From Styela clava (taxonomy: Eukaryota): a DNA stretch of 64,000 bases. Both the position numbers and the translations under genes were made by a program. The stretch is from the NCBI RefSeq assembly GCF_964204865.1, contig NC_135250.1, positions 25,358,001 to 25,422,000 on the forward strand. The letters run 5' to 3'. Of the stretch, positions 9,216-60,056 are shown in pieces. The first letter of the stretch is position 1. Every line of letters begins with the position of its first letter. Below the pieces are notes generated by a model. The model was not told the DNA's origin. It did no database searches and saw nothing but the letters and a program-made list of their open reading frames with translations.

Positions 9216-9304
9216 AGCAGTCATAACACGTATATTGTCACAATTTCGACATCTTCAGCAGATATTCCACTTTTACTATTATTGCTTAATTTATTTGTTT
9301 ACAG

Positions 9305-11252
9305 TTGCATATTTGTACTCGTTCACAAAAATTTGAAGACATCTGATGACGTACTTTCTTTGACTGACATGATAAAACTTAACGATAAAGTGGATGGAGA
9401 TGAATATATTGCTAAAGCAATATCTGTGAAAAGGTTAGAAGTATTTATTTTTTTTTTCAAGTATTCTACAAGGTTATTTGAGTTGATTATGTGATTTCAT
9501 GTAAATGATATTTGTCAAATTCAGGTGATGGATGTTATATATTGGGATATGAGATTTTGTTTGAACGTCATACCGAAATATATCATTGGAACTAAATGAA
9601 TTTGACTTTTCTATGCTACGCATATTTACGCCGTTCGCTTGAAAATCACATTTTTTGTCCGTGTGAACGCCATGCCATTGAATATTTTAGCATGAAGGGG
9701 AAGCGAATGAATATCACACTCGGTGAAGAATCGATGACAACATGTGATGTAATAAATATCGGAGAGTCAGGAATACAAAATGAACAATCTTCTGGAAAAG
9801 AAACTATATTAACGGGAAGAATTAGGAAACTAGATAAAGAGATCGTAATCTATACTTCTTCAAACACATGCTTTAATTGAAAGTTTTAGCATAAATGCAA
9901 TCAATACCTCTTAGTAGAGAAAAGATAAAGAAATTAAACATATTTTTTGACGCAAAATTAAATTTTTTACTTAATTCCTTCTTTAATATATAAATGTATA
10001 TAAGTATATTTTTTTAATTTATACTTTATCATTTTGTCATAATGTATAAGATAACTTATCTTGCTTCAGCATCTCAATCGTTTATTCGACGTCATCTGGC
10101 GACCAAATAATTTTCAAACAAAGTCCTTCAATCACTCTGAACAGCGCTGCTATAGATGATGAGGGTAAGGAAGACTATTCTATATTTCTGTGTAATAGAG
10201 AATTTTGGTCTAGGTCAATAGGTTGAGATAAAAAAAGAAGTGAGTTATCTCAGTGAGAATATAAGCCTAACCCGGTTTGGGTCCAACTCCAAGCAATGTT
10301 ACGAGAGAATACTTTTGAAAAATTTCCAGAAAAAGAAAACTTGACATGGAACATTGGCTCGAAGATGAAGTGTTATTTTATCGGAAGCACTTTTACTATC
10401 TTTTCGGATTTTTAAATATTGATCATGTGACTATTTTTAATGATTATGATTTTTTTCAATTTTATTAGTATTTTTGAAACCAAAGCTCTTCAAAATCATC
10501 TGGAATTAATGGTAATATTTTTTTTTAGAAAAACATTCATTCGAGTTCAACATCGCGAGTTTCGTGATCGGTTTTCTTATTCCTTTTGTCTTCTTGGTCG
10601 TCTCTGCCGGGATCATATACAAATTGAGGAAGAAAATAAAGAATCTGGAGAAAGATGCTGGAGAAAGAAGCAAATAAACACAATTACGAAACTATAAAAG
10701 GAAAAGGTACTTAGAATTAATGTTAATCAGAAAAGCATTATTCTTGTAGAAAATATTGTTCCTATATAACCAACTAGTTTTATGAATATTCAAAAAAATA
10801 TTAATAATTACTCATATTGTAAACACAACAGAATATGTTCGGGATCAAATTTGTATCTCCAATTTATTTATTATTACATAGAATGAATCTTAGTAAGATT
10901 TAAAAGTTTAGTAAGTTATTGATGTACAAATATTATAACCCGGCGATTTGCAATTTCAAAAAACCCCAAGAAAATTTGCATAATAAAACAAATGTAAATG
11001 TATTTCTGAGAGACATGTTCATCTTGAATTACTGAAATTTAAAATGGATTGGTCTAATATTAGCCCATTACACCAATATTATAAATCTTATTGGAATTTT
11101 TATTTAATTTGATTCTCAAGCAATTAGCAAATCCTTCCAACAACCAGTTGTATCCGAATGTACTGCAAGAAACTACCGAAAACAAACAAGCTTATTCTGC
11201 CACAACTATCCAAAGACATGGGGAATCAGCTTACGAAACTTACAACGCCTAA
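9305..11252 (+). pseudogene. 5'-truncated receptor fragment E (three of the four membrane-proximal-domain exons, TM exon, tail exon)
   Basis: Exons 9305-9433 (CIFVLVHKN..YIAKAI), 9691-~9845 (NITLGEESMTTC; normal donor deleted), 10070-10164, 10529-10706 (TM, +7 nt frameshift from a TGGAGAAAGA duplication) and 11128-11252 (LYPNV..AYETYNA*). The ten upstream exons are absent. Confidence 0.85.
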
Positions 11253-11591
11253 TAAACTCAATATCTATTCGCATATTATAAAAAGAAAAAAAGGTTGGTC
11301 TTCATAAAACACTCGGTGATGTTGTGACTAACAATGTCTTAGCTGTTGGTTAGAATATTTCAATCGTGATGGTGTCAATGGATAAAATTCTTACAAGTCG
11401 ACTCAATTATCAATCTCCATCCAATTTCTCTGAAGCTGATATGAATATACTAATATCATACGGCATGTATTCTCATTTTCAATTATGAAGAAAATTGACT
11501 TAAAATTAGCCACGTAGTAATTCGATGATATGCCCAAAATGCCCATCTTCCGTCGGCCAGGGTTTTTCTATTGATATGGATGTCTTAATCT

Positions 11592-11810
11592 GGTGCTCTC
11601 GAAATTTGCGTACCAAGATGGCGTACACCGGAACGTAGTATGTGTACCGCATGTGTAATTTTATTCCAATTTTCCATATTTTAGTTCTATTACGAGTTCG
11701 AGGACTAGCCAAGTGACTACCGTAGTATTTGTATCTGAAATTAAGGCTTAACCCTAACCTGGTACATATACTACGTTCCGGTGACCGCCATCTTGGTTCA
11801 CATACTTCCC
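11592..11810. mobile_element. Palindromic MITE with long imperfect TIRs (family also at 59845-60056; related ends at 39395-39602 and 51838-52225)
   Basis: GTACCAAGATGGCG..CACCGGAACGTAGTATGTGTACC ... GGTACATATACTACGTTCCGGTG..CGCCATCTTGGTTC inverted pair. Confidence 0.7.
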
Positions 11811-12239
11811 TTAATCTTACAAAACGTCACTAGACATTTTCAAATCACTTGATTATTTAAGTGAGTATTTAGCGAAACCACGTGATACCTATTTTTATTG
11901 TTCATTGCATATTCACTCGTCTTTGTTATTTCGTTTTTATTTTATTTTATTTTTTATTATATCTGAGGGTGTTGTTAGCTCCATAGCTAAACAATCCGTC
12001 ATTCTCAACTCATAATATTTAAACATTTATCGTAACAACTTCGTCAATTCGTGATTTTTTGTTTAATAGATCCATTAATTCTGATTCTTAATATGAAAAA
12101 TCATCATTCAATTCTGAACCTTCGCTGACGCTGCAAATATCCCTATTATGTAAATCATTCTCGTACTTTTACTGGAAAAAGCAAATGTGACTTATTACGT
12201 TGATGTTATTTCCTTGGCTTATTACTTTAACTTATTATG

Positions 12240-12407
12240 CAGAGTGTCCATAAAGTCCCTTTACAATTTCAATTTTTGTTATGAAGCCAGTTTATATCTT
12301 AAGTATTTTTACTTCATTTAATACATCTGTGAGGGCCAAAATAAAGTGGGGCATCGGTAAATTTCCTCTTGCAATTTTAAAAATGTCAAGACCTTATGGA
12401 CACCCTA
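12240..12407. mobile_element. Small Tc1/mariner-like MITE (also 60521-60688)
   Basis: TIRs CAGAGTGTCCATAAAGTC / GACCTTATGGACACCCTA, followed by TA. Confidence 0.6.
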
Positions 12408-12429
12408 TATAATGAGTCAAAAATCAAAG

Positions 12430-13197
12430 GAATTTTCAAAGCTCACAAGTTTAAATATTTAAACAAATATATAGCCTACTTGTACAAAAACTGTTTTATA
12501 CATAATTGATTTTATAGTAATTATTAGCTATTATCAGTTAACCTGCCTGCGGATTATACTAGCAATATTCTTTATAGGCTATCTGGTTTTATCAACATTT
12601 TTTAATAGTACTTTGCTTTATCACGCAAAGGCTATTATGTTATTTTAATACGTCTATAGTCTCAACTTTTTAGTCAGTACTCTTCACGATGTACACTAAG
12701 GCTCTGGTCTTTACTTCAAAATAAAAAAAATGATAAGGTTTATATATTCTAAGCATATATATAAGGTGATGAAAACACCATTCATATTAGTGAAACGACC
12801 TAGCTAGAGAGGGACATTGGAAATGGCAGGATGGTACTGATGTGATAATGATAGGTGAAGTTGAATATTAATATATACCAACCAACCAAATTATTCTCTA
12901 AAAAGTCAAAGTATATACATACTGCATTTCTAAAAATGAGGTAGATTTTAGCTTAAGATAGTTCATCCAATTGGTGACTAGTACTTAACAAGTAATCCAA
13001 AAGAAGGAATTCCCCTACGACAGACAATGGCATTATTGAAGTCTCGCTTGCCGTTGAATTTGCTACACTCTTGTGGATACTACACGACATGAAAGTTATA
13101 AAAAATAATTTAAGGAGCAATTTTTTTTTTTTTCAATTTTTTTAAATATAGTTGAGGACCAAATCAGTTTTGATATCTTACTTCACCTCTCATCATT
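12430..13197. pseudogene. Decayed receptor intron-2/CTLD exon-3 remnant, with an inverted piece of the exon end at ~13157-13197 (duplicated at ~61270-62020)
   Basis: + strand TGGAAATGGCAGGATGGTACTGATGTGATAATG (WKWQDGTDVIM) with frameshifts; - strand ATGAGAGGTGAAGTAAGATATCAAAACTG (MRGEVRYQN). Confidence 0.7.
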
Positions 13198-16100
13198 TAA
13201 AATTCAAATTTATAAATACGAGAAAATTGTTTGCCGATCAATAATGGAATGGGTTCAATATGCTCAATTCTAACTTTCGTACCGCCAATGATCAAGAATT
13301 GATTTTTTGCTGAGTTGCATTCTAGTCGGAACTGGTGTTGAGGAGTGACAACGGTACTGCTGTACTGGCTTGTTCACGTTTTAACCTGTGGTGCAGTGCA
13401 AGCTTAGCAATCGCCGTTGTAATACTTAGCAAGATAGGTAGTAATTCATTCCAAAAGCATAAAGTTAAACTGTGGATAAGTACGCCGAACAATCGCCGAG
13501 TGCATAATGAAACAATTCGCTGGCATTGAATGAATACCAATAAGGAGCCTACATATGATGTAAAGATGAAAAGGACGTTAAGGCAGCATGACAGAATCGA
13601 AATATAATGAATCAGGTTTATGAAGAAAAGTAATTGAAATTCAACTAACGCAGATAGGCCTACAGTAAAAGTTTTTATCGGTACTGCAAAATCTATCTAT
13701 ATATTGAATGACAACTCAAACAATATCTTTGGTATTATATATGCATAAACAGTTTTATGGTCCTACAATTTGACCATGCCAATTCGCAACATTTTTACCA
13801 TTTTTTTAATGGCGTGTTATTGTTTTGTTCTGTGTGCATATCGTTTTAAGAATATCGGTATTGGCCTCATCAATTACAGACCTGTACACTCGTGATTGGT
13901 GTGTTTCCTGTGAATTGCTTTTACAAGTGTCTGTGCACATAATTTACCAACATAGCTTCGATTAAAGTTTGTATTTTGCTTCTTTTAAACCAATGCCAAA
14001 TCAGTTAAGTTATTCGTGGCTTCCGACTATTCTCGTTAGTCGTTACTTTGTCACATTGTATTTGTATCAGATTGAATAGATCATTATCAGCTTAAGTATT
14101 TTAAAAGTAGCCTACAACAGCCTGAACGTTCAATACATTCGCGTATTTTTTGCGTGTTTATTTCTGGCCCATTCCTCGTTTAACAAAGTTTGTGTTTTTT
14201 GTTAGTGACTTGATCAAGCTACCAAGAATTGGACCAGTCCCGCCATCTATATCATCGGAAATGAAAAACTCAGTCTGATACCGGCATCAAATCTCAACAA
14301 CACCTCTGTAACACAACATAACAGCTATTTAAGTAAACATTGTTCACAGGTTGGGGGAATAGCTATATTTTGGATTGAGATTTCATGCGCAAATATTGCA
14401 CTATCTCGTCCATTACTATCAGGTGAAGAAACATTTATATAATATTTACAACGTTGCTAGTTATTTGCGTCAAATCGGAAATCACTGTTATTCACGAAAC
14501 CACAAGCTTCTTATGTCTTTTGGTTACTGCATGTCGAAACTGTACAAACAGTAGTGACACCTCGTAAAATGATTATTATAAGTTCACACCCACAATTCAT
14601 TGAGTCACTTTTGTACATAATACATGCATTGCTAAACCAACCGTATTTAATCTGTATATACACATTTAATATTAAATGTCAAAATCATATTGTTGAGCAA
14701 TATAATGAACAAATATAAATTTAATGCAGAGCAGAAATAAAATATATTTTAGTTTCATAAAAGATAATGTGTGAGATTTTTAAGATTGTTGTGAAACAAG
14801 TTTGCCAAATATTGTTTATCTGTCATTTTCCTTTTTCCACGTATATTTACAAATATTTGAAAGATCACATATACAGCACATGGAAGTTTTACACGACCCT
14901 GCTCAAATTTTGCTATATCACTTAAAACAGTTTTCATTCGGTGTAACTTATAAATAGCGAAATGCTTGTGCATGTCACATGTTTCCTGATTGCAGTAGAC
15001 AGTGAAAATATTTTCACATTTAAACGCTCAAACATTCATCCATCTGAATAGAGAAGACTTTTTAGTATATCAAGACTTAATTTCCATATAAACTTCTCTG
15101 AGTATACGTTCTTTAGAAAAGTTTGCAATATTTAAGTTTTTAACTTTATTTAATTACACATGGCCAACTTCCCGGAAATTTGGAATAAGTAACAAACTCA
15201 AATCTGCATTTGCGATCTTTTCAACTGCTTACTCTATTTATACTTCTTGAAAACGTATATATTTGTCTCAGTCACAAGTATTTCTAAGCACAATAATGTT
15301 CTTCACTGGAAATTAGAGGTATCGGTGCTGGATGTTCAAGTGATATTAACTTTTGCTCGTTCTAATACGATTATAATAATAGGTCTGTACAAATAAAGCA
15401 GCAACATTTACAAATTACAACAAAGAAAAATCAACAAAGTAAACAAAATGTCGCAGTAATGTGAAACACTGTTTAATGTCAAAATTTTCTTTTCTGAGAA
15501 AATACAATGAAAATTTAGAAACTTACAAAGGACTGATAGATCATCATCGAGTCAGCGATACCCCAATTAGTTAAAATGCGAAACAAAAATGTCAAGTGAA
15601 AATGCAAAAAACAATAGAATTAAACACCACATGGTTCTAGCTTGAGGCATTTGCAGGACCTGGTAAATAAAAATCTCTAGCCTCAACTGGTGACGATTTG
15701 CAAAATTACAGACAGGCGCATCACGTACCAGGGGAAATCCCATGTCCGATGAAATGCGTGCATTTCAGACATAACATCCAATTACTATAAGAATAACGGA
15801 CTATTTTTAGTCGAAAGAAGCATTCTTTCATTTTTGTCTTCTATTTTTAGTCAACAAGAAGAATTCTTTCATTGTTGGAAATGACACTATAAAACTTTCC
15901 TATTTTATAGTATATGCGTATTAGTTGTCGGGCATGGAAATTATAACGAGCGAGACAAAATGAGTGAACTTTTCAAGTAAGGTTTTTGATTTTTATTGCT
16001 GTATTATAATACACAGACTACACCCGAACTACAAGTCGTTTACAAGAATGCATGCTAGAATATACATGTTTGCGACATGACCTACAGAGCTGATTACACT

Positions 16101-16304: not shown

Positions 16305-19300
16305 TCAGGCGTTGTAAGATTCGTAAGCTGTTTCCAATTGTGTTTGCTTAGTTGTCGCAGGCAGAGCTTGTTCGTAACCGGCAGTTTCTTGCAAGACATT
16401 TGATGATGATGGTTGTTTGTAAGCTAATTCTACTTGCGTTTGCTTAGTTGTCGCAGGCAGAGCTTGTTCGTAACCGGCAGTTTCTTGCAGGGCATTTGAT
16501 GATGATGGTTGTTCGTAAGCTGATTCCACTTGTGTTTGCTTAGTTGTAGCAGGAAGTGGTTGGTCGTATCCGGCAGTTTCTTGCAAGACATTTGAATATG
16601 ATGGTTGTGAAGCTGGATTGTTGGGAGGAGTTGCTAATTAATTGAAAGAATGTAATTAGCAACAAACAAAAATCGATTTAAAAGACTGATCTTGTAGAAA
16701 TCAGATCTAAGTAAACCTGTGGTAGACAGTGTGTTAAAATAATAATTTTTTAAATAAAATATCTCAGTTTTTTTCTATTACTTCATAGAAGGTTTGTTCA
16801 CAGACCAATCTCTTTCAAATTTTTAGTAATTTAATGGGCGTGACTCCTAGTAGGGCTTTAATTTTATTCACTTTTTATTTGCGGTGGCATTCCAATTTTG
16901 TATAAACTCGAGATATACAAATTGTATTGCCCCACTATTAGAACCTGTATTGATTGATAAACGTTTTCTATCCCATTAACATTGATGGCATGTGTTTATC
17001 ATTGAAGTGGAGTTAAAACTTTTATCGTGACCGTATTCTGTTGTGTTTATACACTTTGAATGACACTTCGAATTTGATTTTATGGGAATAATATTTTATA
17101 CATCAGTTCTGATTATTTCTCACTACCTTTTTCTTCTATAGTTTCGTAATTATGTTCTTTTACTTCTGCCTTTTCCTTCAAATTCATTATTTCTTTCTTC
17201 AATTTGTATATGATCCAGACAGAGACGACCAAGAAGACGAAAGGAATGAGAAAACCAATCACAAAACTGATGATGTTGAACCCGAACGCTTCTTTTTCTA
17301 AAACAAATACGTTACTCTGATTTCCCGTTGATATTTAAAGGTTTTGGGATTATAGTTTTATTAAAATTAGCAACATCATCTCTAGAATTACAAAGATAGT
17401 ATATAACGTTCACAATAAAAGAACACTTTATTCTTCTTTCAATTCTCAAAACTATTTGCTTGTTATCTTGTGTTGTTTGAAGTTTGCTAATTTTTTCCAT
17501 AATCTGGCTTTGAATTAACCAAATCTGAATATTTGTTATTCTTACCGGTATCGTTCTTAGCAGTAGTTTCCTGTTCACCTTGTTTCAACGTTATAGAGGG
17601 GCTTTGACTGAAATGTATTTGGTCACCAGAGGGCGTAGAATAAACTATCGAGACACTGAAGTAAAATAAGTTATATTATGCATTGCGGAAATAAATTCAT
17701 TAAATGAAATACTGATAAAAGATCCGATATATTATATTTGATTTGATAGCACTATTGAATAGGTAAATCAATCTAATTTGACGTTAACATATATCTTTAC
17801 TTTCTGTCGGTTTTAAAATAGCATTATAACAATACCAAAACTTTCGATTAAAAATTAAAAGTCTATGATGATCTATATATCCCTAAGATATATCTGGAAT
17901 ACCTGAACGTCTTTTTATCTAATTTTTTGTTTCTTCCTGTGAATAAAATTTCTTTTCCACGACTTTGTTCATTTTGTATCCCTGCTTTTCCGGTATTTAT
18001 TACGTCACATGTAGTCATTGATTCTTCACCGAGTGTAATATTCATTCTCTCCCAATTCATGCTAAAATATTTTATTCAATGTAAAATAGAATATGGTATG
18101 TTATGCAGGAAATACCGCTGCTACTCGAGACAATAGAAAAATGACGTTGCAACGACGCATACAAGTATATACAAATTGAAACTCTTAATATAGCAGTATA
18201 TATGAATTCAAAATACATGAAGGGTGCGGTGGTACGCACATACGCGGTATCAAAGTATCTTGTTGCATGTGCTTTGTATATATTATAGCCAAAAATTATT
18301 GGAGTAAAGTATTAGTAGTACAATGTGTTTCGTTACGGTCGTTAGAAAATTCAACGTCAAAAATCTTATAAACTCTACAACAAATAATCGCTGTTGTCCT
18401 GATATATTACATAATACATCCACTAGCTAGACGTAAAATCACGTTAACCGGGTAATCTAATTAAATGTTACTTTTTAATTGGCTTTGTCGGATTAGCAAC
18501 CAGAAATAGCAAATGAAACAAATCACCCTAGTACTTCTTACGAGTGGGACTTTCACCCGATCTATTAATTTTAATTTTACAAATAGAATTTTAAGTTGTT
18601 TATCTTATAAATCGTATTTTTTGTTTATAAATCCTGTTCAACTGAAAACACCCAATTGACAGATCACGTAGAATATTCTTCTGGAAAAAACGATTTCCAA
18701 CCTTGTCATAGGTATTGCTTTAGCAATATATTCATCTCCGCTCACTGTGTTGTTAATATTTATCATGTCAGTCATAGAAAAGTCGTCGTCAAGTTCCTTC
18801 AAATTTGTGTGTACAAGTACAAATATGCAACTGAGGTAAATAAATTATACAATATTAAAAGTTGTACTGATAGCACTATTTGTTGAGGAATGAATTCCGT
18901 ATTGTGGAATGATATTGATCAAAATAAATCAAAACTTCAGTGTCTAGTAAGCAAAGTGACTGTATTGGTGAGAGAGATGCTTAATATACCTAATATGATA
19001 TATGAACATGCTCGGTCGATTTTTATTCCAGGCTAACTATCAACCGTAGAGAAACAGACGTATTAACTTTTTGAATACCGATATATATATTATTTTCTAC
19101 TCTGTTGCATTTAGCTTACCTGACAAGGCCATTAGTCTCATCCGGTGCCTGTATTGCCAGTTCTTTGATGCCACACACGTTGATTAGGTTATCTTCAAAA
19201 CTTTCAGGCGGAAAAATCTTTGTAGGAGCTAAAACACGAGACAGTGTTTGCTAAAATAAATTGCGACAAACATGCTTACGCATTTTCACATATATTGGTT

Positions 19301-22300
19301 TGAATGGAGTTGTTAAGTAGACGGGTAATTGCAAACTTGATTTCACAAATATTAACTTCTCAATATACCTGTAGGTTTTCCTAGACAAGTGCCAGCAACC
19401 AATAATTCTTGACCAAGACCAGCACACTTAAATATTTTGATCGAAACAGAATAGTTACGATTTGGTTCTGGTTGAAATGAATACACGGATGATGATGTCA
19501 CGTTTATTAGTTTCATGTCTGTCTTCAAGTTCAAATCTCGCGACGAAGCCAGGGTTGAAGTTAAATTCAGTTCCTATAAATCATCAGATAAAAGTATTGC
19601 ATCAGAAATATTGAAGTTTTTATTTTAAATTTCCTGAATATGGGTTTCAAATGAATTGTTGAAGATAACGTAATAAACCAAAACTTCCAGATAAGTGGAA
19701 TATGATTTTGATATAAAAAATTGATAAAACAATATCTGTCATTTATATCAGTGGACCAAAACAGATTTACGATCGTAACAATAGAGTGGATGGCTGTAGA
19801 ATCAGCCAAACTTCGTGACACAGAGTGAAGTCATATTACACGTATAAATTCTCAATCCAATTTACACACCATCAACCAAGTTGTTGTAGGACATGTGTCT
19901 CAAATAGTTTGTGTTAACAATGCAATTATCGACTCACCACGGTATAAGAATCACCAGTCTCTGTTTTGTTATATAAGATCCATGAGATGACGCAAGTTTG
20001 CGTATTCTTGTATTGTATAATAGATGACGATTCAACAGATAACTTTGATCCGCCTGTTCTTGCGCTTCGGATGGTAGAATATTTGGTTGGACAGTTATCC
20101 TTTGTTACACATGCAGTTATCTGAAATTTATATTTAACAATATAATAAAGCAACGTATAATTTGGGTGAAGTGGTCAAGTAGCTTAGAACGTTTCGTACG
20201 TATTCCTGAGAGAGGAGACCTTTTGCTGGAAGTAGAACCCATGCAATAAAAATTATAAAAAAAATGATCGTTTACGATATATTGAAAAATTATTACTTAC
20301 TTTGATTTGAAAGGTTGTGTTAGGTGACAAACTGGTTATAGTGGTTGACTGTTTCTCAGATGTTGGTGAATCCACCCATCTTGTTGATTCACCTGAGGTC
20401 GGACTTACTTCTATTCTGTGAAACAGATGTGAGTTGACAGTGACAATTTGATGGAAGTAAAACAACTTGTAACAATATGCGTAATGGTGTTGGGTACACG
20501 GGTCGTAACCAACATGATAGAAATACATGTTGACACTCACCAATACGTCTAATAAATTTAACATCGTAACTTAAGCAGCTTCTACCGTTATTGGACACGT
20601 TTAGTGGCCATAACGATCGTTTCAAAATTTTGTTGTTATTGTTTAATGTTATTTGTCTCCGTCTCCATTTTTAAAAAATCGCTTTTCTCTTCGAATACTG
20701 GACCAATTGCTTTAATATTTTCAGTGGTTAAGATAAAATTTTTCTCCAGAAGGCTATTACTTTTCTTTCGCTATGACGTCATCAAAATTATTGCCACTGG
20801 GTGGCGCTACGTGTCCATATATTTGAGCATAGCTCTCTTGTCTTAGATGACATTATATCATTGTTGTGAAAACGACTATTGACTTAGATTTGTCTAAAGG
20901 CATTTTCGGTTCGGAGGAAGAGATGACGCATAAACAAGATGTTGAAATTTATGCCTTAATATTCATAAAGGTAAACTCACTTGTGTGGGAATCCAACAGC
21001 ATTTGTATGTGGTTGCCATGAGATGATCAAGTTAGAGTTGCAGACGTTATTGGATATTTGATGGATTGTGGGATTTCCAGCCACTAGAAAAGTAAATACC
21101 AAAAAATTAGCTGACAGAACTTTCAAAATTTAGAGAAGATCGTTATTTAAATTCACCCTCATATGATTCAGTTGTAGTTTTCTCGGTTTGGCCAATTCGA
21201 TAACGACAACTATAAGATCCCGCATCTGCAATATTCGAATTTTGAAGATTCAATGTTGCTGATCCAGTTTGTATCGTTTGGTAAACTCTACTTGTAGTTG
21301 CGGTTGATACTTTGTTAGATGCTTTGTACCAATCAACTTGTGTTGCAGTGCTGCATTCTGTCGCAGAACATCTTTTCTGGTTTCCACTGATTGTTTGTAT
21401 TCTAACGAACGGGCCCGGAAACACTGAAGCAGAATTTGTGAATTTGAAGCCGTAAATAACACAAATTAGTTTAAAATATGAAAACTAGGTTGATTACTTT
21501 GGTTCATGCAGGCAGAAACACTAAACTTTGAAAGTATCATGATTATATTTTTAGCGGATAAAAGCATTTTTGCGTTGATACTATTAGGGCAACTCTGTTT
21601 GTTACAAAATTTAAATTAAGTGATAGAAGCGCAATAATTCTACTATAGGCATTCAGTGGCACCGAAAGACAATACTCTCGTATCGTATACGGTACTTGTA
21701 TTGATGTGACCTGTATTGAACAGTTTCAATAGAATATTGTTAATTTGACATTTACTTCAAATCATATTTATCGTGCTAGCTTATAGGACAGGAGTTTATA
21801 TATTTGAGTTTCGTTGAGGGCAGTGCGGGTATTGTTACTGTAGTGTTCTGGGTACCATAGCATTTCCACAGTTCAAGCTTCTTTCATGATATCGTATGAT
21901 TTTTGTGGAATTGTTGGAATAGCTTTGATTTCTATATACATATATTTGTGTTTTGCTCTATTGTTTTCTTTAGATAGAACCTATGCAACTTGATACGTTT
22001 CCTTTACCTTCAGTTGAGCAAGCTTGCATATTCAAACCACTTGTACGATACCAGAAAAATTTACGACAAAGCTAAAAAACCCATAAGAATGTCATTATGA
22101 GGACGAGTTATACAAGTCTGTTATCAAAACATAGCCATATAATGAATTCATTGAATAATGAAACATCAATGATACCTATCTTTCAAATTGAGCCAAAAAT
22201 AGAAAACCGAGTATTACCTTTCTGGCAAATGTAGAAGAAGTTTTCATCGCAAGATGAATCAACCCACAGGTACGTTTGTCTGCCAACTGTCAGACAGTTT

Positions 22301-25202
22301 TCACCAGTCCCACCATTTGGCTGATTACCTTTCCTGATAAATTGAGAAGCCGTATTATTTAAGTGTAAAATTTATGCGCTTCCTAAGCAATGGCCATACA
22401 GTCTTCAACAGCATTATTAACTGCAGTCTCACCATTCGGTTGATTATATTTCCTGATAAATTGACAAGCCTAATTAATTAAGTCTAAAAATTAGGAAGGC
22501 TCTGATGAACTAATCTGAACCAAATTTGTTAACAAGATGTTGCGCAGATATGGCTACCCATTATCTATAAATAGGAGAAGTACTGATATAATAAATATGA
22601 AATTAAAATAAATTTTGGCTTGGCATAATTTATCTCATTTCCCTTACTGTTATCATCTAATAAGGTTTGTCAGCATTTCACCACTAAAAAAATGAATTCA
22701 ACTACGGCAGTTAATGAATATCATCATTGAAGTCATGCCGAGGTATTTCTCTTTACTATAATATTGATAATAATTAAACTGCATGGTATACGAGATCAAA
22801 ATTCTAATTCGCTCCTTAAATAATTTTATTTTTTTCATTTTATTTTTGCAACTTTTTTAAATAAACTTGAAAAACAAACCAGTTTTGATATCCTGCTTCT
22901 CCTCTCATTGTCACATCAGTACCATCCTGCCATTTCCAATCTCTTTCTCTAGCTATGTCATTTGCTCCGATGTAAAAGGTGTTATCTTGATGTTGTATGC
23001 TAAGAATATAAAAACCTTATTAGTTTTTTTTTAAGAAAATACCGGAGCCATCAATTGAAAATTAATAAACGACTGAGGGAAGAGCTGAAATATACCACGG
23101 AACGCTAAGATAGCTAAATATCCTTTGTGTGATGAAGCAAAGTAGTAATTAAAAAACGTTGATTATGCCAGGTAGTCAACAGTTAGTTCTGGTGTTTTGT
23201 AAACTTGAATGTATATGTCTAATTAGTAATTACTGAAAAAACTCATTGCGTATAACAATTTTCGTTCAAGTTTATTCAAATATAGTAACTTGTAAGCTAT
23301 GAAAATTTCATTGATTCTTGCTTTTATTCTATTTACGAATAACTACTGGCTTCAATACAGCATATCCAAGGTAAATAAATTGCTGTGTGGAAATTAACAT
23401 AAATACTGCGGCTGGTTTTACGATTATAATGTGAAAATAATGAAGTACATATTTGGAATTATCCCGATCCTACAACATGATTCCTAAAAGTAAAATAAAT
23501 CTTTAGCTCTCGTACATCACTGTACAAACAATATCCTATTTCAACTCACGTATATAATAAGTGTTTAATCTACATCAAGGCTGCCCAACCCGCGGCCCGC
23601 GGTCCGCATGAGGCCCGCCAGACTGTTTTTCGCGGCCCGCCCTATAAAGTTTGTAAGCAGAATTTTTATGTTTGTACTATGTTATTCAATTTATAGGGTT
23701 AAGTAGGTTTCGTGATTTTGGAGTGATTATTCCTGCCATCTATCCACATTCAAATGCCGGTTTTTATTATTTTGTATGTGTCAAGTCTTGCACCCTGGTA
23801 GACATCGACGTCATTTTTTTTTATTTCTCGCAGAACTGAGCGTTCTGTTCGACGGACTCGAAAGATATTGTGCAATCATTGAGGACGAACGCTGAGCACA
23901 ATTATGGGAATGAATTTTGAGCCTAAATTTGCAGATTAATTTCATTCTGATTGATTTCTTACGTGTCTGCTTTGATCGTCTTTATCTCCAACGTAACATA
24001 AAAAGTCAACGATATCTTTGGTACTGGTTCTGGGAACGTTGTCCTTTTATGTTTGTGATTTTTTTTTCAAATGTTTGGGTTAAATAAGATTTCGGAAATG
24101 TCGTCACTACGTATCCGTCAATAATTCTAATGAAATTGACTTAATGGCATTGCTGCATATTGGCCACGAATCAGTATATATATAGGAAATTCGTCCAGAA
24201 ATCTTTGTAATGTTACTTCATTAAATATTTGCATTGGCGTTCCAAATTTTACAAAACGACCGATTAAAACTTGATATTTCTGCGACATTGGCACACATTA
24301 TGCTCATTTAAACATTGAGGCAGTATCATAGCTACTGAAAATGAATGAATAAAAATACTATAACGCAAATATAACATTTAATTTCGACGTGATGTGTGTG
24401 TTTTCGGGTGTCATCAAGAAAGTTTCATGCCCACGCCCCGTGTTACCAGATATTCGAATAATTTGCCAGCCCTGCTTAGTAAACAGAAAGCAATTTTTAA
24501 CTTGATTGATTTGATCTTAATAAGCTTGACTTTTATGTATTACATAAATTACCTACACCGAAATCAGGACCTATAGCTGGTATTAATGTTTGGTACAAAC
24601 GTTTGCGGCCCGCAACGAATTTCGACTCTTGAAAGTGGCCCACGAGACGAAAAAGGTTGGGCAGGCCTGATCTACATTGAGATGGTACAATGTTCAATAC
24701 ATAGAACAATTCACATATTAAATAACACCAAGATATCAAAAATAAGTTTCTTTCTAACTCACTCGAATGCTGAATTAATGACTGTCGTTATTCTTTGATC
24801 ATCAACTTTAGTCAAGTAACCTCCAAATCCTTCACAAGAAGATTTTGCCTCGTTGTAAGTTTTACGTTGTTTGAAAAAAAGCAGTTCAAACCCATCAACA
24901 CATTCTTTCTTCCAGGGATCTGAAACACAACGGTATCTGGAATTGTAATCAGATTCAAATTTCAACAATTGAATAAATAACAATTCTCATTTATTACCAT
25001 GAAATTTGAAGAATATGAGCTGAGGTTTTTCCATATATTATAGAAACATTTGCATTTGTCCGAGAGAAAGCAACCTATTCATAAACAAAATGTTGGACAG
25101 GAAAAAAGCAAATGGGTTTTTTCATACAATATTCAACTAACCTTGGGCTGAAGCACTTGTGATGATAATCGAGACAATTATCACCAAAACAGTAGGATTC
25201 AT
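16305..25202 (-). CDS. Receptor copy B: CTLD(QPN)-Ig-FN3-FN3-RPTP-like membrane-proximal domain-TM-tail with 3x32-aa Tyr repeats; 15 exons, 766 aa
   Basis: Exons 25202-25142, 24919-24763, 22999-22880, 22333-22218, 21423-21157, 21083-20981, 20415-20301, 20120-19938, 19573-19369, 19228-19120, 18830-18702, 18061-17903, 17655-17579, 17297-17127, 16633-16305. All GT-AG with matching phases; total 2301 nt, single terminal TGA. Confidence 0.9.
16321..16608 (-). repeat. Coding minisatellite, 3 x 96 bp, encoding QPS(Y/S)SN(V/A)LQETAGY(D/E)Q(P/A)LPATTKQTQ(V/L)E(S/L/T)AY(E/K)
   Basis: T(C/T)GTAAGCT recurs at 16321, 16417 and 16513 (period 96). Confidence 0.95.
20591..20841 (-). mobile_element. Non-autonomous Helentron/HINE-like element (AACAAGAGAGC..ATATATGGACAC family)
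   Basis: Absent from the paralogous intron of copy A (empty site CCGTTTTCTTAG near 2505). Inserted in a T-run without a TSD; subterminal GGACAC/GTGTCC inverted repeat. Confidence 0.55.
22389..22452 (-). pseudogene. Orphan truncated duplicate of CTLD exon 4 inside intron 3 of copy B
   Basis: ATCAG|GAAATATAATCAACCGAATGGTGAG.. gives (W)KYNQPNGETAVNNAVEDCMAI, then fuses to intron sequence (GCT TAG stop). It matches the copy-D-type exon. Confidence 0.85.
23576..24669. mobile_element. Non-autonomous hAT element (~1.1 kb) in intron 2 of copy B
   Basis: TIRs CAAGGCTGCCCAACC / GGTTGGGCAGGCCTG; 8-bp TSD ATCTACAT at 23568-23575 and 24670-24677; empty site in copy A at 4983-4990. Confidence 0.92.
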
Positions 25203-29014: not shown

Positions 29015-31584
29015 CTAATATTCACACAAAGCTCCCATTCTTGTCCATCCTGGACTAGCATTGTGCAAACCTTGATCTATTGAGTGTTTATCCAGTTTAG
29101 AGACTAAGCCTGTCAAGGTGTAATCTGAGGGAGATTTAGGATACCCGGTGTGCCAAGGTAAAGTGGGTGCTCCAGCTCCGTTTGAAAGTATCGCTTTTTT
29201 AGTCTGAAACATACAAACAAATGAAACAGCAGCAACCTACGAATCACACTATGAAGCTTAAATTAAAATACTTAACTGTACGATTATGTACCGGTATATA
29301 ATCTGCATATAAAAGTAATATTTTGCTAAGATTTTAGGTTTGTTCTAGACCTAGACACTATCTGACGGAGGTAACGAAAATTGTTAGCTATACTTACTCT
29401 TGTGTTGTAGTACATTCCAAGCCATACAACAACAGTTCTCGATTCCTTGCGTAAGTATTCGAGTACTAAGTTGTAGTGTTCCATTGAGTAGATATTTGCT
29501 AGTTCCCAACCTTTGGATTTGCACACATTCTTAGCTTCTGGGTATTTCACATCCGATATTTTATGCAAAATAGCTTGAAAGCATTTCCCGTTGTATAAGA
29601 ACGTTGAACAATGTTCTGAAAAAAATAAACTTTTTCAAACCCAAAGTTAATACTTTTGTGCTTTGAAGCGGTACAAAAGGTAGAGAATGTTTTTTGACTT
29701 TCAATACGATTATGAATGTTATCTAAATATATTGGTAACGCAAGATTAGGATCAATTACATCCAATGGTTAATCCCAAGTATACCACCGCAATAGGATTT
29801 AATCAATTGGGCCGGATGAGCTGAACCTAAAGCACGACTGTCATTATGAAACGTTATGGTAATGAAATTTTGCTCGAACATGATTATAAAATAGTATTTT
29901 CAAATAAAAAATTTTCATTCTAGCAAGATTCCACTCAAAAATAAATTCTTTTTATTTTGCCAAACCATATTCTCGCACATACACACCCTTGTTTTAGTCA
30001 CCCTGCACAAGTTTTTGCGCAAATAACCCGTCAGAAAAAAATTTAAATCTGGTTTACGCAGTCTATTTTATTTAGAATCTAAATGTAGTGAACTTTGGGT
30101 CGACCAGGTTTTAAAATTTAAGATGACTCGCGTCACTGTGAGTCTTGTTGACTCTGGTCGAAGTTGAATCAATGACTCAAGGATCCCTAACATTGATGTC
30201 AACTATAATTACAGAAATGTTATCAATCATTAACCAATTGGACACGACGTGGTCGTATGGATCGTTTTGTTATTATGTTGTTGTTGTTGTTGTTGTTGTT
30301 GTCAGTCATTTGCTTCTTGTTGTTACTTTATGAAAAAAATCACTTCTCTCATGCGCTACTGGGCAAATTGCTTTGAAATTTTCAGTGCTTGAAGATTGTA
30401 TTTTTTTCTAGGAGGCCATTACTTTCATTTATGAGATTTTTTGATAGGCTACCAGTAACAGTATGTACGGTACGAAAAGTGCTTTGTTTTAGATTTCGTG
30501 TCCATATATTTGAGCATCGCTCTCTTGTTTTTGGTTGAAACTAAAAACCAACAAACCCAATGTCTTATGTTCAATTTTCATAGTTGTGTTGCTCAATCTC
30601 GCCAACGTATTTTCAAATTTTTCTTCCATTTCATCGATCCTGGCGCGGAGAGTTGTAGTTGCTATAATATAAAAATGAATTTTTATTGAAATATTTTGTT
30701 TGACATCATATTGTATTGCACCAAATGTAATACAACTCTGTAAATGTAATATCATTTCAAATATTATTCATGCATCTGGAACAAATAACTGGCTAACTAA
30801 TCCCATACCCGACATGGACTGGTAACCGGAAGAGTGGCCGTGGTATGATTAAGCCGCCCTATCGGCTTTCCACTCTCCGGGATAAATATGTAAATGTCAT
30901 CCTATTTTTACAACAGGGATATAATCAAAAATATATACGGTAACTCTGATTTATATATATTCTGTTTTTGATAATTTGTTGGAAGAGATACGAAACGACA
31001 AACGCGCATGTGAGAGATGATTGCAAAGCACATCATTTCTTTATTTTGTCAAATTTCCATTCTGATTTCGTGTTTAGAAGATACATTCTGAAAAATCTTT
31101 CTAAAACATGATCTTGTGATGTTTCTGACTAAAGCTGACTATAGTACCCATTAGCCTCTGGAGTCTCTCCTCTTTCCCTAAAAAAAAATTGCATTGTCCG
31201 TCACGGACTGATCAAGAAATGCCATTGATAATTATATAGTAAAAACTTACTCAACTTAAGAAAATTAAATTTTGTTCATCCCACAAAAAGCCATGAATTC
31301 ACTTTACCATTCACAACTTTTGCTTCCAGCATATCATCGACTAGATTGTAATCTACGGTTCCTTTTGGTCCAATTACTCCCCTGTCACCTTTGACCCCTG
31401 GTGGACCTCGCTTTCCAGGTCTTCCTTGAGTTGATTGATTAATTGGTGACATTACTGGGCCTTGTGTAGTCAAAAACAATGAACATATCTTTTGACAAAC
31501 TTGTTGTTGTTGGTCCGCAACGACGAACGAACGAGTTACCATAACCAGAAAGAGAAAAATGATAAATCCAATTAAATCCTTCAT
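29015..31584 (-). CDS. Secreted collectin-like protein: signal, Cys-containing N-term, short collagen (~8 Gly-X-Y), coiled-coil neck, CTLD; 4 exons, 262 aa
   Basis: Exons 31584-31308 (MKDLIGFIIFLFLVMVTRSFVVA..VCQKIC..GRPGKRGPPGVKGDRGVIGPKG), 30661-30557 (LRARIDEMEEKFENTLARL), 29615-29398 (CSTFLYNGKCF..AKNVCKSKGWELANI..VWLGM) and 29203-29015 (LPWHTGYP..GALCEY*). Phases 1/1/0 are consistent; 789 nt. Confidence 0.88.
30238..30529 (-). mobile_element. AACAAGAGAGC..ATATATGGACAC family element with (GTT)n microsatellite, in the collectin intron
   Basis: Same ends and internal blocks as 20591-20841. Confidence 0.6.
30778..30906 (+). repeat. Probable SINE-like 3' fragment
   Basis: GC-richer island (GGACTGGTAACCGG..GATTAAGCCG..ATCGGCTTTCC..GGATAAATATGTAAAT..CCTAT) in an AT-rich intron; no tRNA head seen. 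Confidence 0.3.
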
Positions 31585-33489
31585 TCTGTATCCCAACTAT
31601 TAACTAACAGAACACAAATACTTGATGATTCAATTTTATCGCGAAGCCAAAATCGTTTGCCGATACTATACATAAAAGTTGACTAATTTAATATGAACAC
31701 ATAGTCATCGCTTATATCAATTGAGATCGCTATGACAGAATATATTATATATTTCCACCAAGGTGTCCCAAACCTTATGCTTTTATGATCTTATATCCAC
31801 ATTCAAATACCTTGAAATGCCTTAACATAGCTTATTGAAGTAAACTGACAAATCTGACTTGCCGTGGAAAACCATTGAACTTGGAGGATTATTTTTAACA
31901 GTCTTCTCACCTTCCTGTCTCAATAACACTCGGGTAACAATGTAAGAATCAGACATTTCAACTGTGTTTTTGGTGTTATAGTCTTAATGGCGTTCTCATA
32001 TTGCTAACAATGCTGTCTAAATTTGTTTAAATCAAGTACTTACATATTTAAATAAATATTCTAATTTTTTAACCGTTTAAAACCAGGAAGTATGTGTGGG
32101 TTAAAAGGAAGTTAGCTGACATTTTCAATGGGTAATTCTGAGTGGATACAACATTTAACCCTTAGAAAAAGGATGGTATTTCGATTCTACAAAGCAGTAC
32201 ATTGTACGCGAAGTCAGCAAATTACAAAATATCAATGGTCAAATACATGGACACGTCATTCAAATGTCAGTGTTCCCTCGTGTGATATAAAATTGTTCCT
32301 ATGAATTTAAATAAACTACAAAATTGAGGGTGATACACTAGGTCCCGCAAGTCTAAGAGAAAACATAAAAAAAAGTTGGAAAATTATGAAATAGATCATT
32401 TAACAAGTTAGAGAACTAGGTTTCCCAACAAAATAAAACGTTGACTCTAACTCTGGAATATTCTGCTTTCAAAAACGAGTCATTGCTATATTCCGAGCTA
32501 ACTTGAATAAATATTCGAAATACTACGCGCTGAGAGCTTACACCAACTTTATAGAAACGGGTCATTTATTGGTTCTCTTGCTGCAAACTTACAGCGGAGT
32601 TGAGTCTATTTTGATCGGGCCAAATTTTTGGTGTAAATTTTGCAAACGGTGTGCGTGACTAAAATTTTCCAATCTTTTATGTCTTGTAAATGTGTCAGAT
32701 TGAGTTGAGTTTTTCAGTTGATAGAGTTTGCACCGTAGAATGTGGATATTATTCACCTAAATTATAGGGAGTAACGAGTGGGAATTTAACATGCCCATTC
32801 CTCTGCCCATTCCAAGCCCTGAACGGCTCGATGTCCGTTAAGTCTATGACCTCATAACGACGGCTAACGTCATATTGGAGGAGTTTGATCGGGGGCCACA
32901 TGGTACGATACCTGATTGAGAACTTCCGCAGTTCGCACGTTCCGTTGTTTGACAATAGGCTTATAATTTATCGAGGTTTAATGGTATAATGGAAGCAAAC
33001 AAACAGCAAAGTACTGTATTATCCAGTTCTTTCAAAAGAAACCCTGCGGTAAAAACCAAAATAGTGGTGTTGACAAAACAGAGACTCCTGTTTCAACCTT
33101 CACAACATGCCTCGAAAAGACCTTGTAGCAATGTTGATATGGATCACGCAGAAACAAGAAAAAAGACTTTAGTAGGTAGTATGATGAGAAGTATTTGGAG
33201 ATAGATTTTACTATTGCTCCCAGCAGCAAAAAGTATCGCTTCCCATGTGCCTAATCTGCGCCAAAATTCTCTCAAACGACGCAATCAAACTCGCAAAGTG
33301 AACGAAATCGTGTGGAAGTCAACGCTCAACTTCGTCTTGCAGAAAATTCATTAGAACCGCGTTTAACACGTATAATATCAAAAAGACAGCAGCAAATTTC
33401 TCAATAAATTGGATTGTCTTCTATTTGCACCGCCTACTCTTGTCGTGATTGCATTCTCTTGATTTTGTTTTGTGTTCATGACATTTTTG

Positions 33490-36679: not shown

Positions 36680-38061
36680 TCAAGATTCCAATACCTTACA
36701 CAAATTATCAATATAATATTGTCTTTTTCGTTTATCGTTGAAGGATATTTTGAAAGCTTGGCCTGAAGATCATCATATCTTCTATTGTCTCTCAAAGCCC
36801 AATATAGTAAGTGTTCAGCGACACATCGTCCATTTTTACTGTCGTTATATTTTAATAACGGGTATCAACATATATCCAACGTTTCTGGCGGTTTTCAATT
36901 TTTGTCTTCAAGCCTTTCTTGCAATCAAAGCAACAAATTATCTTTAGTTTGCATTCCCTCGTTGAACTCAAACACCGCTTGATGTACGTCCCTGTTTGTT
37001 TTGAACATTTCTCCATCCTGTTTTGAAAGTAAATCATTGCTCACGCGAAGTGTTCTCCACGCATGTCTCATTTCATATAAGCATTCTTCAAATCTAGTGT
37101 ATTCATAATCTTCGAAACGAATGCCAAGTTTCCAAAGATTATTTTTCATTTTGATTTTCCCTCTTTCCTGGTCAGTTAACCATTCCAATATTTTTATCGT
37201 GGCTTCATTGAGTTTGCAAGAGGATTTGTTAAATTCTAGGACAAATGTACTATTATAATCATTTCTAAGTTTTGTAGCAAAACGTGTTCCGCATGCAGAA
37301 ATACTGAGTGCAACGAACAATAAAAGAAATGATATTAATGCAAAGGGATATATTTTAATATACAGGTCTGTGTAGCACAGAAATGCGCCGGTTCCAACAA
37401 CCGTAGTCTCCCCAGCGAAAAGAATGCATTCAAATGCATTGGATTGGTATAGAGAGTATAATATTATGAATAATACATCGAGAATAAATGCAATGGCCGA
37501 TACAATACAAGACAGCATGCATCTTCTCAAATAATACTTCTTAATATTCTCTATCTGTCTGTTCGGCCTGTCAAAGTTGTTTACGATTACCAGATAGCAG
37601 ATCTCCAGAATCTGATCAACCTTGTTGGCGTTGACTTAAGGAATAGTAACAGCTTTTTCAAGCTCGTTTTTGCTTACATTTTGCCTACCTAATCCTTTGT
37701 CAATTTGTTTTACGTCTGAAAACATCCTTGCTACTTCAGAGGACAAAATCCGGCTGGAAAAGCACAGGTATAAAATAACAGAGGTTGCCAATGACAACAT
37801 ACCCAAAAGATCTATTATGACGCATCGTTGCGATTGAGAGAACTCATTGGATAAAGTAGACTGTTTGATAATTAAATTTGTAAGTGCTTTGTTAGGCGCA
37901 CACATTGTCGAGAATGCCGTTGTTTCGATAAATATCAGAAGGAATGAAGTAATATTCATGCCCCGCATATTATATTATTTTATTTTTTCCCACCATGGCT
38001 TGAAAGGAGACTCATCCAATAGTTCAGGTTCAATAATATCGGCTGTACCAATGGACGACAT
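36680..38061 (-). pseudogene. Intronless LRRC8/pannexin-like 4-TM channel gene with putative C-terminal death-fold domain(s); in-frame stops
   Basis: One frame from ATG 38061: MSSIG..PFKPWWEKIK*YNMRGMNITSFLLIFIETTAFSTMCAP, ungapped against LRRC8A [36 protein letters not shown] (recalled from memory). Four hydrophobic helices with 2 Cys in each extracellular loop. Stops at 37977-37975, 37638-37636 and 36927-36925 join the two listed ORFs in the same frame. The 3' end is approximate. Confidence 0.75.
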
Positions 38062-49300: not shown

Positions 49301-49989
49301 TTAGTAAGCTGATTCCCCTTGTGTTTAGGTAGCTTTGGTAGAACAAGCTTCTTCGTTTCCTGTAGTTTTTTGCATCACATTCGAATATAATGGGTTGTTG
49401 GAAGGAGTTGCTAATTGGTTGAAAAACAAATTTAAACAATTCCAATTAGATTTAATATATTGGTGTAATGGACTAATATCGAACCAATCCTATTTTAAAT
49501 TTTAGTAATTTAAGATGGACATGTCTCTCAGATGGGCATTCACATTTATTTCATTATGAAAATTTTCTTGGGGCTTTTCAAATTTGCAAATCTCCGTGTC
49601 CTTATATTTATACATCAATAACCTACTAAACTTTTTAAATCTCACTAAAGTTCATTTCATGGTATTATAAATAAATTGAAGATACAAATTTGATTGCGAC
49701 CATATGTTGTTGTAATTACAATATGAATATTTATTTATTTTCTTGAGTAGTCATAAAACTATTTGGTTATATAGGAACAATATTTTATCCAGGGAATAAT
49801 GCTTTTCTGAAAAACAATTATTCTAAGTACCTTTTTCTTTTATAGTCTCGTGATTGTGTTTTTTTGCTTCCACATATTTTTCTTGATTATTTATTTTATT
49901 CATCAATTTGTATATGATCCAGGCAGGGACTAGCAGAAAGATCAAAGGAATAAGAAAACCGATCACGAAACTGATGACGTTGACTTTTT
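49301..49989 (-). pseudogene. Orphan TM + tail fragment F of the receptor family
   Basis: TM exon 49989-49831 is open (NVISFVIGFLIPLIFLLVPAWII..HNHETI). Tail exon 49410-49301 has a premature TAA. No ectodomain exons upstream. Confidence 0.82.
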
Positions 49990-58600: not shown

Positions 58601-59844
58601 CGAATGAATATTACACTCGGTAAAGAATCAATGACAACGTGTGATGTAATAAAGACTGGAGAGTCAGGAATACAAAAGGAACAATCTCCTGAATAAGAAA
58701 TTATATTTACGGGAAGAAATAAGAAACTAGATAAAGAGATATTCAGGTAGATATTTATAATCTATACTTCATCCAACACATGCTTCAATTGAAAGTTTTA
58801 GCATAAATACAATCAATACCTCTTAGTAAAGAAAAGATAAAGAAAGTAAAGATATTTCTTGACGCAAAATTAAATTTTTTACTTAATTTCTTTTTCAATA
58901 TATAAATGTACATAAGTATATATTCTTTAATATATACTTTATCATTTTGTCATATTGTATAAGATAACCTATCTTGCTTCAGCATCTCAATCGTTTATTC
59001 GACCCCATCTGGCGACCAAATATTTTTCAAACAAAGTCCTTAAATTATTCTGAACAGCGCTGCTATAGACGATGAGGGTAAGGAAGACTTTTCTATATTT
59101 CAGCCAAGTGTAATAGATAATTTTGGTCTAGGTCAATAGGTTGAGATAAAAAAAAGTTAGCTGGATCAGGTCATAAAAAAATATTGAGAATGTAAGCTGA
59201 ACGCGGTTTAGGTCAAAATATTGCGAGGGAATAGTTCTGAGAATTTTCCAGGAAAAGATAACTTGGCAAAACATTGGCTTGAAGATCAAGCGTTATTTTA
59301 TCGAAAGCATCTTTCGCTATTTTTGATGTTTTGGAAATAAAGATCATGCGATTATCTTTGAAGATTGTGATTTTTGTCCATTTTATCAATATTTATTGAA
59401 CCAAAAGCCCTTTAAGATCATTTGGAATTATTAGTAATATGGAATTATGAGGAAGATGTTAAAGCAAAAGAACACAATTACGAGACAATAAAAGAAAAAG
59501 GTACTTAGAATTAATGTTGATCAGAAAAGCATTATTCCCTGGATAAAATATTGTTCCTATATAACCAAATAGTTTTATGAGTATTCAAAAAACACATAAT
59601 AATTACTCATTTTTATCGCGATGGTGTCAATGGATTAAAATTCTTACACGTCGACTCAATTATTAATCTCCATCCACTTTCTCTGAAGCTGATATGAATA
59701 TACTAATACCATACGGCATGTGTTCTCATTTTCAATTAGGAAGAAACTTGACTCAAAGATAGCCACGTAGTAATTCGATGATATGTTCAAAATGCCCATC
59801 TTTCGTCGGCCATGGTTTTTCTCCTGATATAGATGTCTTAATCT

Positions 59845-60056
59845 GGTTCTCTCGAAGTTTGCGTACCAAGATGGCGGACACCGGAACGTAGTATGTGTAC
59901 CGCATGTGTAATTTTATTCCAATTTTCCATATTTTAGTTCTATTACGAGTTCGAGGACTAGCCAAGTGACTACCGTAGTATTTGTATCTAAAATTAAGGC
60001 TTAACTCTAACCTGTTACATATACTACGTTCCAGTGACCGCCATCTTGGTTCACAT
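59845..60056. mobile_element. Palindromic MITE (duplicate of 11592-11810)
   Basis: Same TIR pair. Confidence 0.7.

Follow-up and report, generated by a model that had tools for sequence, protein, structure and literature searches.

A 64,000-nucleotide (nt) stretch of the Styela clava genome (contig NC_135250.1, positions 25,358,001–25,422,000, here called the window) carries four gene copies of one receptor family, and in copy B the fourth exon is preceded by a second, partial version of itself; these two units, designated 4a and 4b, are the subject of this analysis. The window had 33% GC, contained no N and included several large internal repeats. The copies were A (from 5602, minus strand), B (16305–25202, minus strand), C (47057–41863, minus strand), which was an open 11-exon frame, and D (from 53571, plus strand). 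Copy D, with an altered exon-4 donor, an altered immunoglobulin (Ig) acceptor and a stop in exon 9, looks like a pseudogene.

Copy B was an intact 15-exon gene corresponding to NCBI LOC120335142 of S. clava. Splicing 14 GT-AG introns out of the window, with 4b as the fourth exon, gave the whole protein, an exact match to the 777-amino acid (aa) NCBI protein P0001; the Ig exon was 100% identical to this locus (13 of 15 matches were named, all of them from S. clava). The encoded protein comprised a signal peptide, a C-type lectin domain (CTLD, exons 2–4), an Ig domain, fibronectin type III (FN3)-like domains, a transmembrane (TM) segment and a tyrosine-repeat tail. C-type lectin, Ig and fn3 domains were recognized by Pfam, the CTLD matching PF00059 at an E value of 6.6e-18, and the four core CTLD cysteines (Cys 49, 126, 141 and 149) were present. 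The tail followed a hydrophobic segment and contained nine tyrosines, NYETI and SYSNV being among the motifs; phosphatase domains were absent. At ~21450 B reads ACGG at the site of an ACAG in A, which suggested a broken Ig acceptor; this was rejected, since in the NCBI models of both copies the acceptor in use lies ~26 nt downstream. Copy A, which differed from its database relative by 2 residues over the modelled part, was the closest window relative of B in the Ig and first FN3 exons. Identities between A and B were 85/108 nt in exon 4, 245/267 in exon 5 and 181/183 in exon 8, and divergence was similar across exons 1, 9 and 4 (77%, 81% and 79% identity).

Exon 3 of B (22880–22999, minus strand, as are all features of this gene) lies in mid-CTLD and has a phase-2 donor GT at 22879. 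Beyond it the 3′ end of intron 3 occurs twice. The first copy (22453–22508) ends with the acceptor AATTTATCAG at 22453, has an extra AG 18 nt upstream of this acceptor, and opens 22 codons (KYNQPNGETAVNNAVEDCMAIA) that run into an in-frame TAG at 22385–22383. The second, 56-nt copy (22334–22389) ends with AATTTATCAG at 22334 and opens 4b (22218–22333), a complete 116-nt exon 4 of the short-loop GGTG class with a GT donor at 22217, which matches P0001 at 38 of 38 aa. An earlier sequence-only reading of this DNA had described both intact acceptors, the complete short-loop exon at 22333–22218, the TAG after 22 codons and a cut in mid-exon at ~22389, all of which were confirmed. The cut proved to be a TTG (22390–22388) at which the end of exon-like sequence overlaps the start of intron-like sequence, the TAG being derived from the intron-like side; copy A reads AGTTG at both the exon position and the intron position that match this join. 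That reading had also spoken of two tandem exon-4 versions, which holds for 4b but not for 4a (22388–22452). The latter was a 62–65-nt 5′ fragment of a long-loop exon 4, with 9 residues between QPN and EDC and without the last two CTLD cysteines (Cys141 and Cys149), the WxD motif and the donor.

The other copies had exon 4 at 3640–3755 (A, minus strand), 45705–45832 (C, minus strand) and 55487–55617 (D, plus strand). Blastn of the window with all five exon-4 sequences matched only these five places, indicating that A, C and D each carry one exon 4. A 161-nt stretch of intron 4 (22022–22182) occurred in B only: neither introns 4 of the other three copies nor any other part of the window matched it significantly. 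It may represent the distal end of a tract that came in, or simply an indel.

The NCBI model splices exon 3 (22880) to 4b and skips 4a, and the 777-aa frame was obtained only via 4b, in agreement with the earlier claim that the function of B depends on skipping 4a. Joining exon 3 to 4a gave a stop at codon 136 and a 135-aa product without Cys141 and Cys149, which thus loses one cysteine from each core pair. Between the stop and the next exon junction there are 165 nt, and 11 introns follow downstream; exon-junction-dependent nonsense-mediated decay predicts the decay of a message with such an early stop. Four GTs inside 4a would give exons of 20, 31, 43 and 53 nt, no length being divisible by 3 and none being in frame with 4b. 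The first, at 22431–22432 (G/GTGAGA, 20-nt exon), is a cryptic donor with a score of 8.8. An in-frame mini-intron between 4a and 4b was rejected for want of an in-frame GT; with none of the four GTs matching the frame of 4b, 4a has to be skipped in full. The pieces of 20 and 53 nt would keep the frame if spliced to the Ig exon, but such products would lack Cys141 and Cys149. As one of a pair of mutually exclusive exons 4a failed, having no 3′ half and no donor and giving no full in-frame product either way; with no donor in frame with 4b, it counts as a dead half-exon and not as an alternative one.

Acceptor strength was scored with a matrix derived from 30 further acceptors in copies A, B and C, a small, non-independent set that was uninformative for this choice: 4a scored 4.6 and 4b 6.6, real acceptors ranged from -3.2 to 11.5, and two upstream AGs unused in the NCBI model scored 8.6 and 6.7, above both. 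The AG-free stretch upstream was 46 nt for 4b and 18 nt for 4a. Sequence alone cannot settle the choice between 4a and 4b; under the best account of its origin, given below, 4a is likely intronic now. The sequence-only reading had suggested that 4a could act as a poison exon. A kept and regulated poison acceptor, tuning the level of B via nonsense-mediated decay, would agree with the intact acceptor, whose score lies within the real range, and with the position of the stop so far ahead of the last junctions. But 4a was present in only one of the four window copies (absent from A, C and D), and its mean identity to six long-loop relatives (12.8 of 21 aa) was slightly lower than that among those relatives (14.3 of 21). 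Nothing was found in support of regulation, and this role, which bears on how 4a is used today and would agree with either of its origins discussed below, is improbable.

The repeat period of the two units was 119 nt, not a multiple of 3. They shared 40 of 56 intron nt and 39 of 50 exon nt (79/106, ~75%) and differed in addition by a 15-nt indel. Their local core matched at 59 of 70 positions with a score of 85, the mean of 1000 shuffles being 15.2 and the maximum 26. An assembly artefact joining two haplotypes or paralogues is suggested by the highly repetitive nature of the cluster, but a quarter of the unit positions differ, with an indel besides, and the join leads from the middle of an exon into intron sequence; the window is free of N, and NCBI places the B protein on a 32.7-Mb contig. 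We regard such an artefact as very improbable.

To place the two units among their relatives, 20 family proteins were gathered (P numbers), and some of them may stem from one locus, as alleles or as earlier models; exon 4 was present in 18 of them (P0013 and P0020 being without it). Paralogues outside the window were compared as proteins only. Six of the 18 exons were of the GG-short class, five NN-short and five long (9 residues), with one eight-residue loop and one other. Exon 4a belonged to the long class and 4b to the GG class; copy A belonged to the NN class, copy D to the long class, and copy C had an eight-residue loop. The description of 4a as D-type was right as to loop class. D was not its closest relative, however: 4a matched D at 50 of 65 nt and 13 of 21 aa and the out-of-window proteins P0003 and P0010 at 14 of 21 aa, each of the six long-loop relatives lying between 10 and 14. 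Exon 4a has M and I where 17 of the 18 members carry L and V, and these substitutions, with its lower identity, hint at mild decay of a dead fragment.

The second acceptor region did not point to copy A, contrary to the earlier proposal, and 4b was not of the exon type found in A. The second intron copy matched A at 44 of 55 nt and the first at 46 of 55. The loop motif is EPNNFGNEDC in A and QPNGGTGENC in 4b, and 4b matched A at 21 of 38 aa, against 32 of 38 for LOC120335168 (P0012) and 31 of 38 for P0008 and P0015. In nt and aa comparisons within the window A, C and D thus fit poorly as donors of the exchanged tract, and both the long-loop and the short-loop partner, each a paralogue or a divergent allele, are inferred to lie outside it.

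The classes bear directly on the origin of the two units. One alternative is that the intron-3 end and half of exon 4 were duplicated in tandem long ago within one gene, loop class then changing in one of the copies through 15-nt slippage or a later in-register conversion. This is in keeping with the best DNA tree, which joined the two B units weakly (51/34), and with about four bases common to both B units as compared with A, C and D. CTG repeats flank the 15-nt indel, and an event of this kind across an intron-exon boundary is described in the available text of PMC4974935. Yet the units, at ~75% identity, were no closer to each other than either was to A, and their path length on the DNA tree (0.39) set them as far apart as different paralogues. 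Conversion of 4a to 4b would require the 15-nt deletion and three replacements; all three match the GG class, while 4a matches the long class, so that convergence or a second event is needed. With ~75% identity and the loop classes of different paralogues, recombination between members is likelier than a recent tandem duplication. A simple recent duplicate, the outcome that the earlier reading had set against exchange, did not fit the 79/106 identity, the 15-nt indel and the 51/34 tree support; the DNA tree does not reject an old local duplication, which we consider unlikely.

Signs of exchange of the loop exon were also seen across the family. On a tree of the Ig and FN3 exons (18 rows, 17 proteins plus copy C; P0013, P0018 and P0020 omitted) loop class was unclustered, needing 10 changes where shuffles averaged 10.3, and the members of starred sister pairs were of different classes. 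On a tree of exons 2 and 3 (17 rows) class was somewhat clustered (8 changes versus 10.4; 2 of 200 shuffles were as low). Approximately unbiased tests on a quick LG+G4 tree (16 rows, P0016 and copy C dropped) rejected a single clade for each of the three main loop classes (p = 1e-41, 0.0016 and 5e-8). Scatter of the GG class would be expected if GG were ancestral; the NN and long classes are scattered as well. The nearest relative of B varied by exon: P0005 in exon 1 (20/20), P0018 in exon 2, P0012 in exon 4, copy A in the Ig exon, P0009 in exon 9 (68/69) and P0010 in the TM exon. The scatter of classes and the exon-by-exon change of neighbours support repeated exchange among members, and the earlier claim of exchange in the family was upheld in that loop class is decoupled from the rest of the gene. 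Given such exchange, recombination between two classes is the best account of the scar in B.

Some further differences in loop class were noted. P0004 (NN loop) and P0015 (GG loop) were sisters in exons 2–3 (100/99), and class thus differs among phosphatase-bearing members too. P0011 and P0019 share one gene id (LOC120325826) and have different long-loop exons 4 (15 of 21 aa identical in the loop part), possibly through allelic variation or a remapped model. The eight-residue loop of copy C (45705–45832, minus strand), also present in P0007, resembles the start of the GG class joined to the end of the NN class; that the long loops are themselves out-of-register recombinants is speculative.

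From these results 4a is probably what remains of a recombination between long-loop and short-loop family members that was misaligned and joined at microhomology, and it is predicted to be spliced out now within a lengthened intron 3. The units fall in different paralogue classes, and a short TTG overlap is present at the join. Of the earlier proposal, the out-of-register join of two exon-4 classes, here at a short microhomology, was supported; A or D as donor was not. One end of the event would have been homologous and hence invisible; the other would have used the 3–5 nt (TTG/AGTTG) common to mid-exon 4 and intron position -56. The partner would have been a paralogue or divergent allele outside the window. 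Gene B could have survived since the 4b acceptor was usable, and transcripts leaking to 4a would be removed by nonsense-mediated decay or misfolding. The event would be old, and one of many exchanges that made B a patchwork.

The direction of the exchange is left near even: conversion from one side, whichever it was, and a fusion of two tandem genes would all produce the anatomy seen. We lean slightly, with the earlier reading, to 4b being foreign to exons 1–3, through replacement or a two-gene fusion; that 4a is instead a failed intruder is nearly as plausible. Exon-3 affinity, used as a test of direction, gave a tie (34 of 41 aa to P0010, which has a long loop, and 33 of 41 to P0012, which has a GG short loop). 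P0012 was nearest to B on the exon 2+3 tree, with no starred support, which would fit a native 4b, and the 161-nt stretch after 4b, absent from A, would fit the tail of an incoming tract.

P0010 and P0012 were sisters on the downstream tree (100/98), and both were nearest to B in exon 3. This would also be in line with an ancestor of B with a long-loop and a short-loop exon 4, both complete and used in mutual exclusion, from the first of which a microhomology deletion later took the donor and 3′ half, and such a history predicts the identical present anatomy. However, A, C and D have a single exon 4 each, and in the records shown none of the 18 exon-4 proteins was labelled as an exon-4 isoform of another; P0011 and P0019, with their one gene id, differ in exon 4 but elsewhere too. 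We hold this ancestor to be improbable, at about the level of the regulated poison acceptor.

Several points weigh against recombination between two members. The five-unit DNA tree was unresolved: its best topology joined the two B units (51/34), and no alternative was rejected. Loop length varied in distant relatives (3, 5, 5 and 6 residues; the motif was readable in 4 of the 8 relatives examined), and taken with the CTG repeats on either side of the 15-nt indel this means that recurrent indels can mimic exchange. The overlap at the join is today only 3 nt, weak when taken alone. The splice scores of 4a and 4b are not decisive, both lying within the range of real acceptors; the comparison with out-of-window paralogues rests on proteins and not on donor DNA; and the NCBI model that skips 4a is a prediction.

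Exon 4 had been called the specificity-determining exon. Its residues align with QPD...E...WFD of tetranectin and with EPN...WND of mannose-receptor domains, and within the mature ectodomain examined its loop part varied most (mean identity of 0.54 versus 0.68–0.80 for other exons in 15 proteins). WND accompanies EPN or QPD in canonical Ca2+-dependent sugar-binding C-type lectins, and was also visible in alignments of the database matches. QPN was found in 15 of the 18 members, EPN in 1 and WND in none; canonical sugar binding is therefore doubtful. According to the available text of PMC9630629, the main calcium sites are located in the long loop region, and which sugar is preferred depends on EPN or QPD. 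In CTLD exon 2, A (5120–5276, minus strand) and B (24763–24919, minus strand) differed by 12 replacement codons versus 1 silent codon in 51, an excess that hints at positive selection. With no WND in any member and this excess in exon 2, exon 4 did not stand as the single determinant of specificity; from the sequences it is one variable module among several. An AlphaFold model of B (14-sequence alignment) had a pLDDT of 36 and was not used.

Elsewhere in copy B, the last exon (16305–16633, minus strand) contained a tandem repeat of ~96 nt (32 aa) with two tyrosines per unit, and the number of repeats varied among members. Four extra exons of B, 10–13 (17127–19573, minus strand), were not in A or C, giving long and short forms of the ectodomain; in A (529–1491, minus strand) and C (42474–43456, minus strand) exon 9 is spliced directly to the TM exon. 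Intron 2 was 1763 nt in B versus 820 in A and included a GC-richer insert (~23590–24690, minus strand) whose ends resembled inverted repeats by eye, possibly a small DNA transposon.

In the rest of the window, a segmental duplication of ~6 kb (9231–15295 and 58069–64000, 84–94% identity) contained the 3′ half of a D-like gene, and a further TM-plus-tail fragment lay at 49301–50123. A decayed exon-3 fragment (12591–12868, plus strand) had its 3′ end and donor on the opposite strand (13123–13193, minus strand), and was also seen at 61412–61749; it looks like the scar of an inversion, again in this CTLD region. A collectin-like gene (29329–31596, minus strand) had a signal peptide, a short collagen repeat and a C-type lectin exon, with weak Pfam matches. 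Two adjacent open reading frames (ORFs) at 36928–37974 (minus strand; 112 and 236 aa) encoded several hydrophobic segments and matched no Pfam family, and an atlas search with the ORF at 36928–37635 gave a best score of 0.77 and no lead.

As an event the scar is ordinary for such gene clusters and adds one more instance to a known kind. Exchanges among tandem receptor genes are mostly in register and traceless, being inferred only from mismatched trees; the scar in B keeps both partners side by side and so provides a physical breakpoint. It is also a small natural test of the choice made by the ascidian spliceosome between near-identical acceptors 119 nt apart. The family is more interesting than the scar and is the larger lead: ~20 Styela proteins share one ectodomain and have phosphatase or tyrosine-motif tails, a layout like that of paired immune receptors, which makes a part in recognizing self or pathogens a question worth testing.

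P0004, P0015 and P0016 had the same CTLD-Ig-FN3 ectodomain plus phosphatase domains, with two Y_phosphatase stretches in P0004 and P0016 by Pfam, and the phosphatase part of P0004 gave best matches to PTP alpha, epsilon and LAR. The family was apparently derived from receptor protein tyrosine phosphatases (RPTPs). The FN3 region of B gave PTPRT as the top feature match (0.94). This lead to an R2B-like ectodomain was not confirmed by sequence searches of the PDB, where the best phosphatase matches were PTP alpha/epsilon, and no RPTP ectodomain was among the 51 PDB matches for P0013. R2B enzymes carry an N-terminal MAM domain. Some members of the Styela family share phosphatase domains with tandem-domain RPTPs, but have a CTLD at the N-terminus in place of MAM, and B has a tyrosine-repeat tail instead of phosphatases. 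Tetranectin was the best single-domain match for P0001 (E = 1.7e-8; PDB 1tn3 and 1rjh), QPNGGTGENC...WVD of 4b aligning with QPDGGKTENC...WFD; unlike tetranectin, B is membrane-bound and multi-domain, and identity was low.

Among the literature matches listed there was no description of a CTLD-Ig-FN3 Styela family, most subscription journals lying outside the scope of the search, so that absence is unproven. Styela, C-type and fibronectin were all unmentioned in the main text of PMC12065747, and HrSMLP1 was rejected as unrelated to the Styela family on the available text of PMC6916515. It is conceivable, though doubtful, that the family is an undescribed, fast-evolving recognition system built from RPTPs, in which a CTLD-Ig-FN3 ectodomain is joined to tandem phosphatases or tyrosine-repeat tails, the loop exon is traded among members of either kind, and the scar in B marks a half-finished trade in which a short loop replaced a long one, changing ligand specificity and leaving an acceptor that tunes dose.

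In genes of the Dscam type, tandem exons are mutually exclusive. B resembles them in that a recognition-loop exon occurs in two tandem versions with an acceptor apiece; it differs in that the upstream version is only partial, runs into a stop and offers no in-frame donor for splicing to its partner. In a potato RdRp gene, as described in the available text of PMC4974935, a tandem duplication across an intron-exon boundary was followed by use of a cryptic donor in the upstream copy, making a new intron. There, as in B, the 3′ end of an intron and the 5′ part of an exon occur twice in tandem and the downstream acceptor was inherited intact, but in B the GTs of 4a are all out of frame and the units belong to different sequence classes. 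A related setting is that of the Botryllus fester family and FcoR, tunicate receptor clusters for which intergenic recombination is reported in the available text of PMC12582321; there the FcoR ectodomain is Ig-Sushi-Ig-Ig and FcoR tails contain tyrosine motifs. Identity of the Styela family with fester/FcoR was rejected on domain layout, the Styela proteins being CTLD-Ig-FN3 with no Sushi by Pfam. The scar of B also lies within one domain. What the two share is a cluster of polymorphic tunicate receptors that mixes ectodomains and tails, including a tail with tyrosine motifs that is also present in B.

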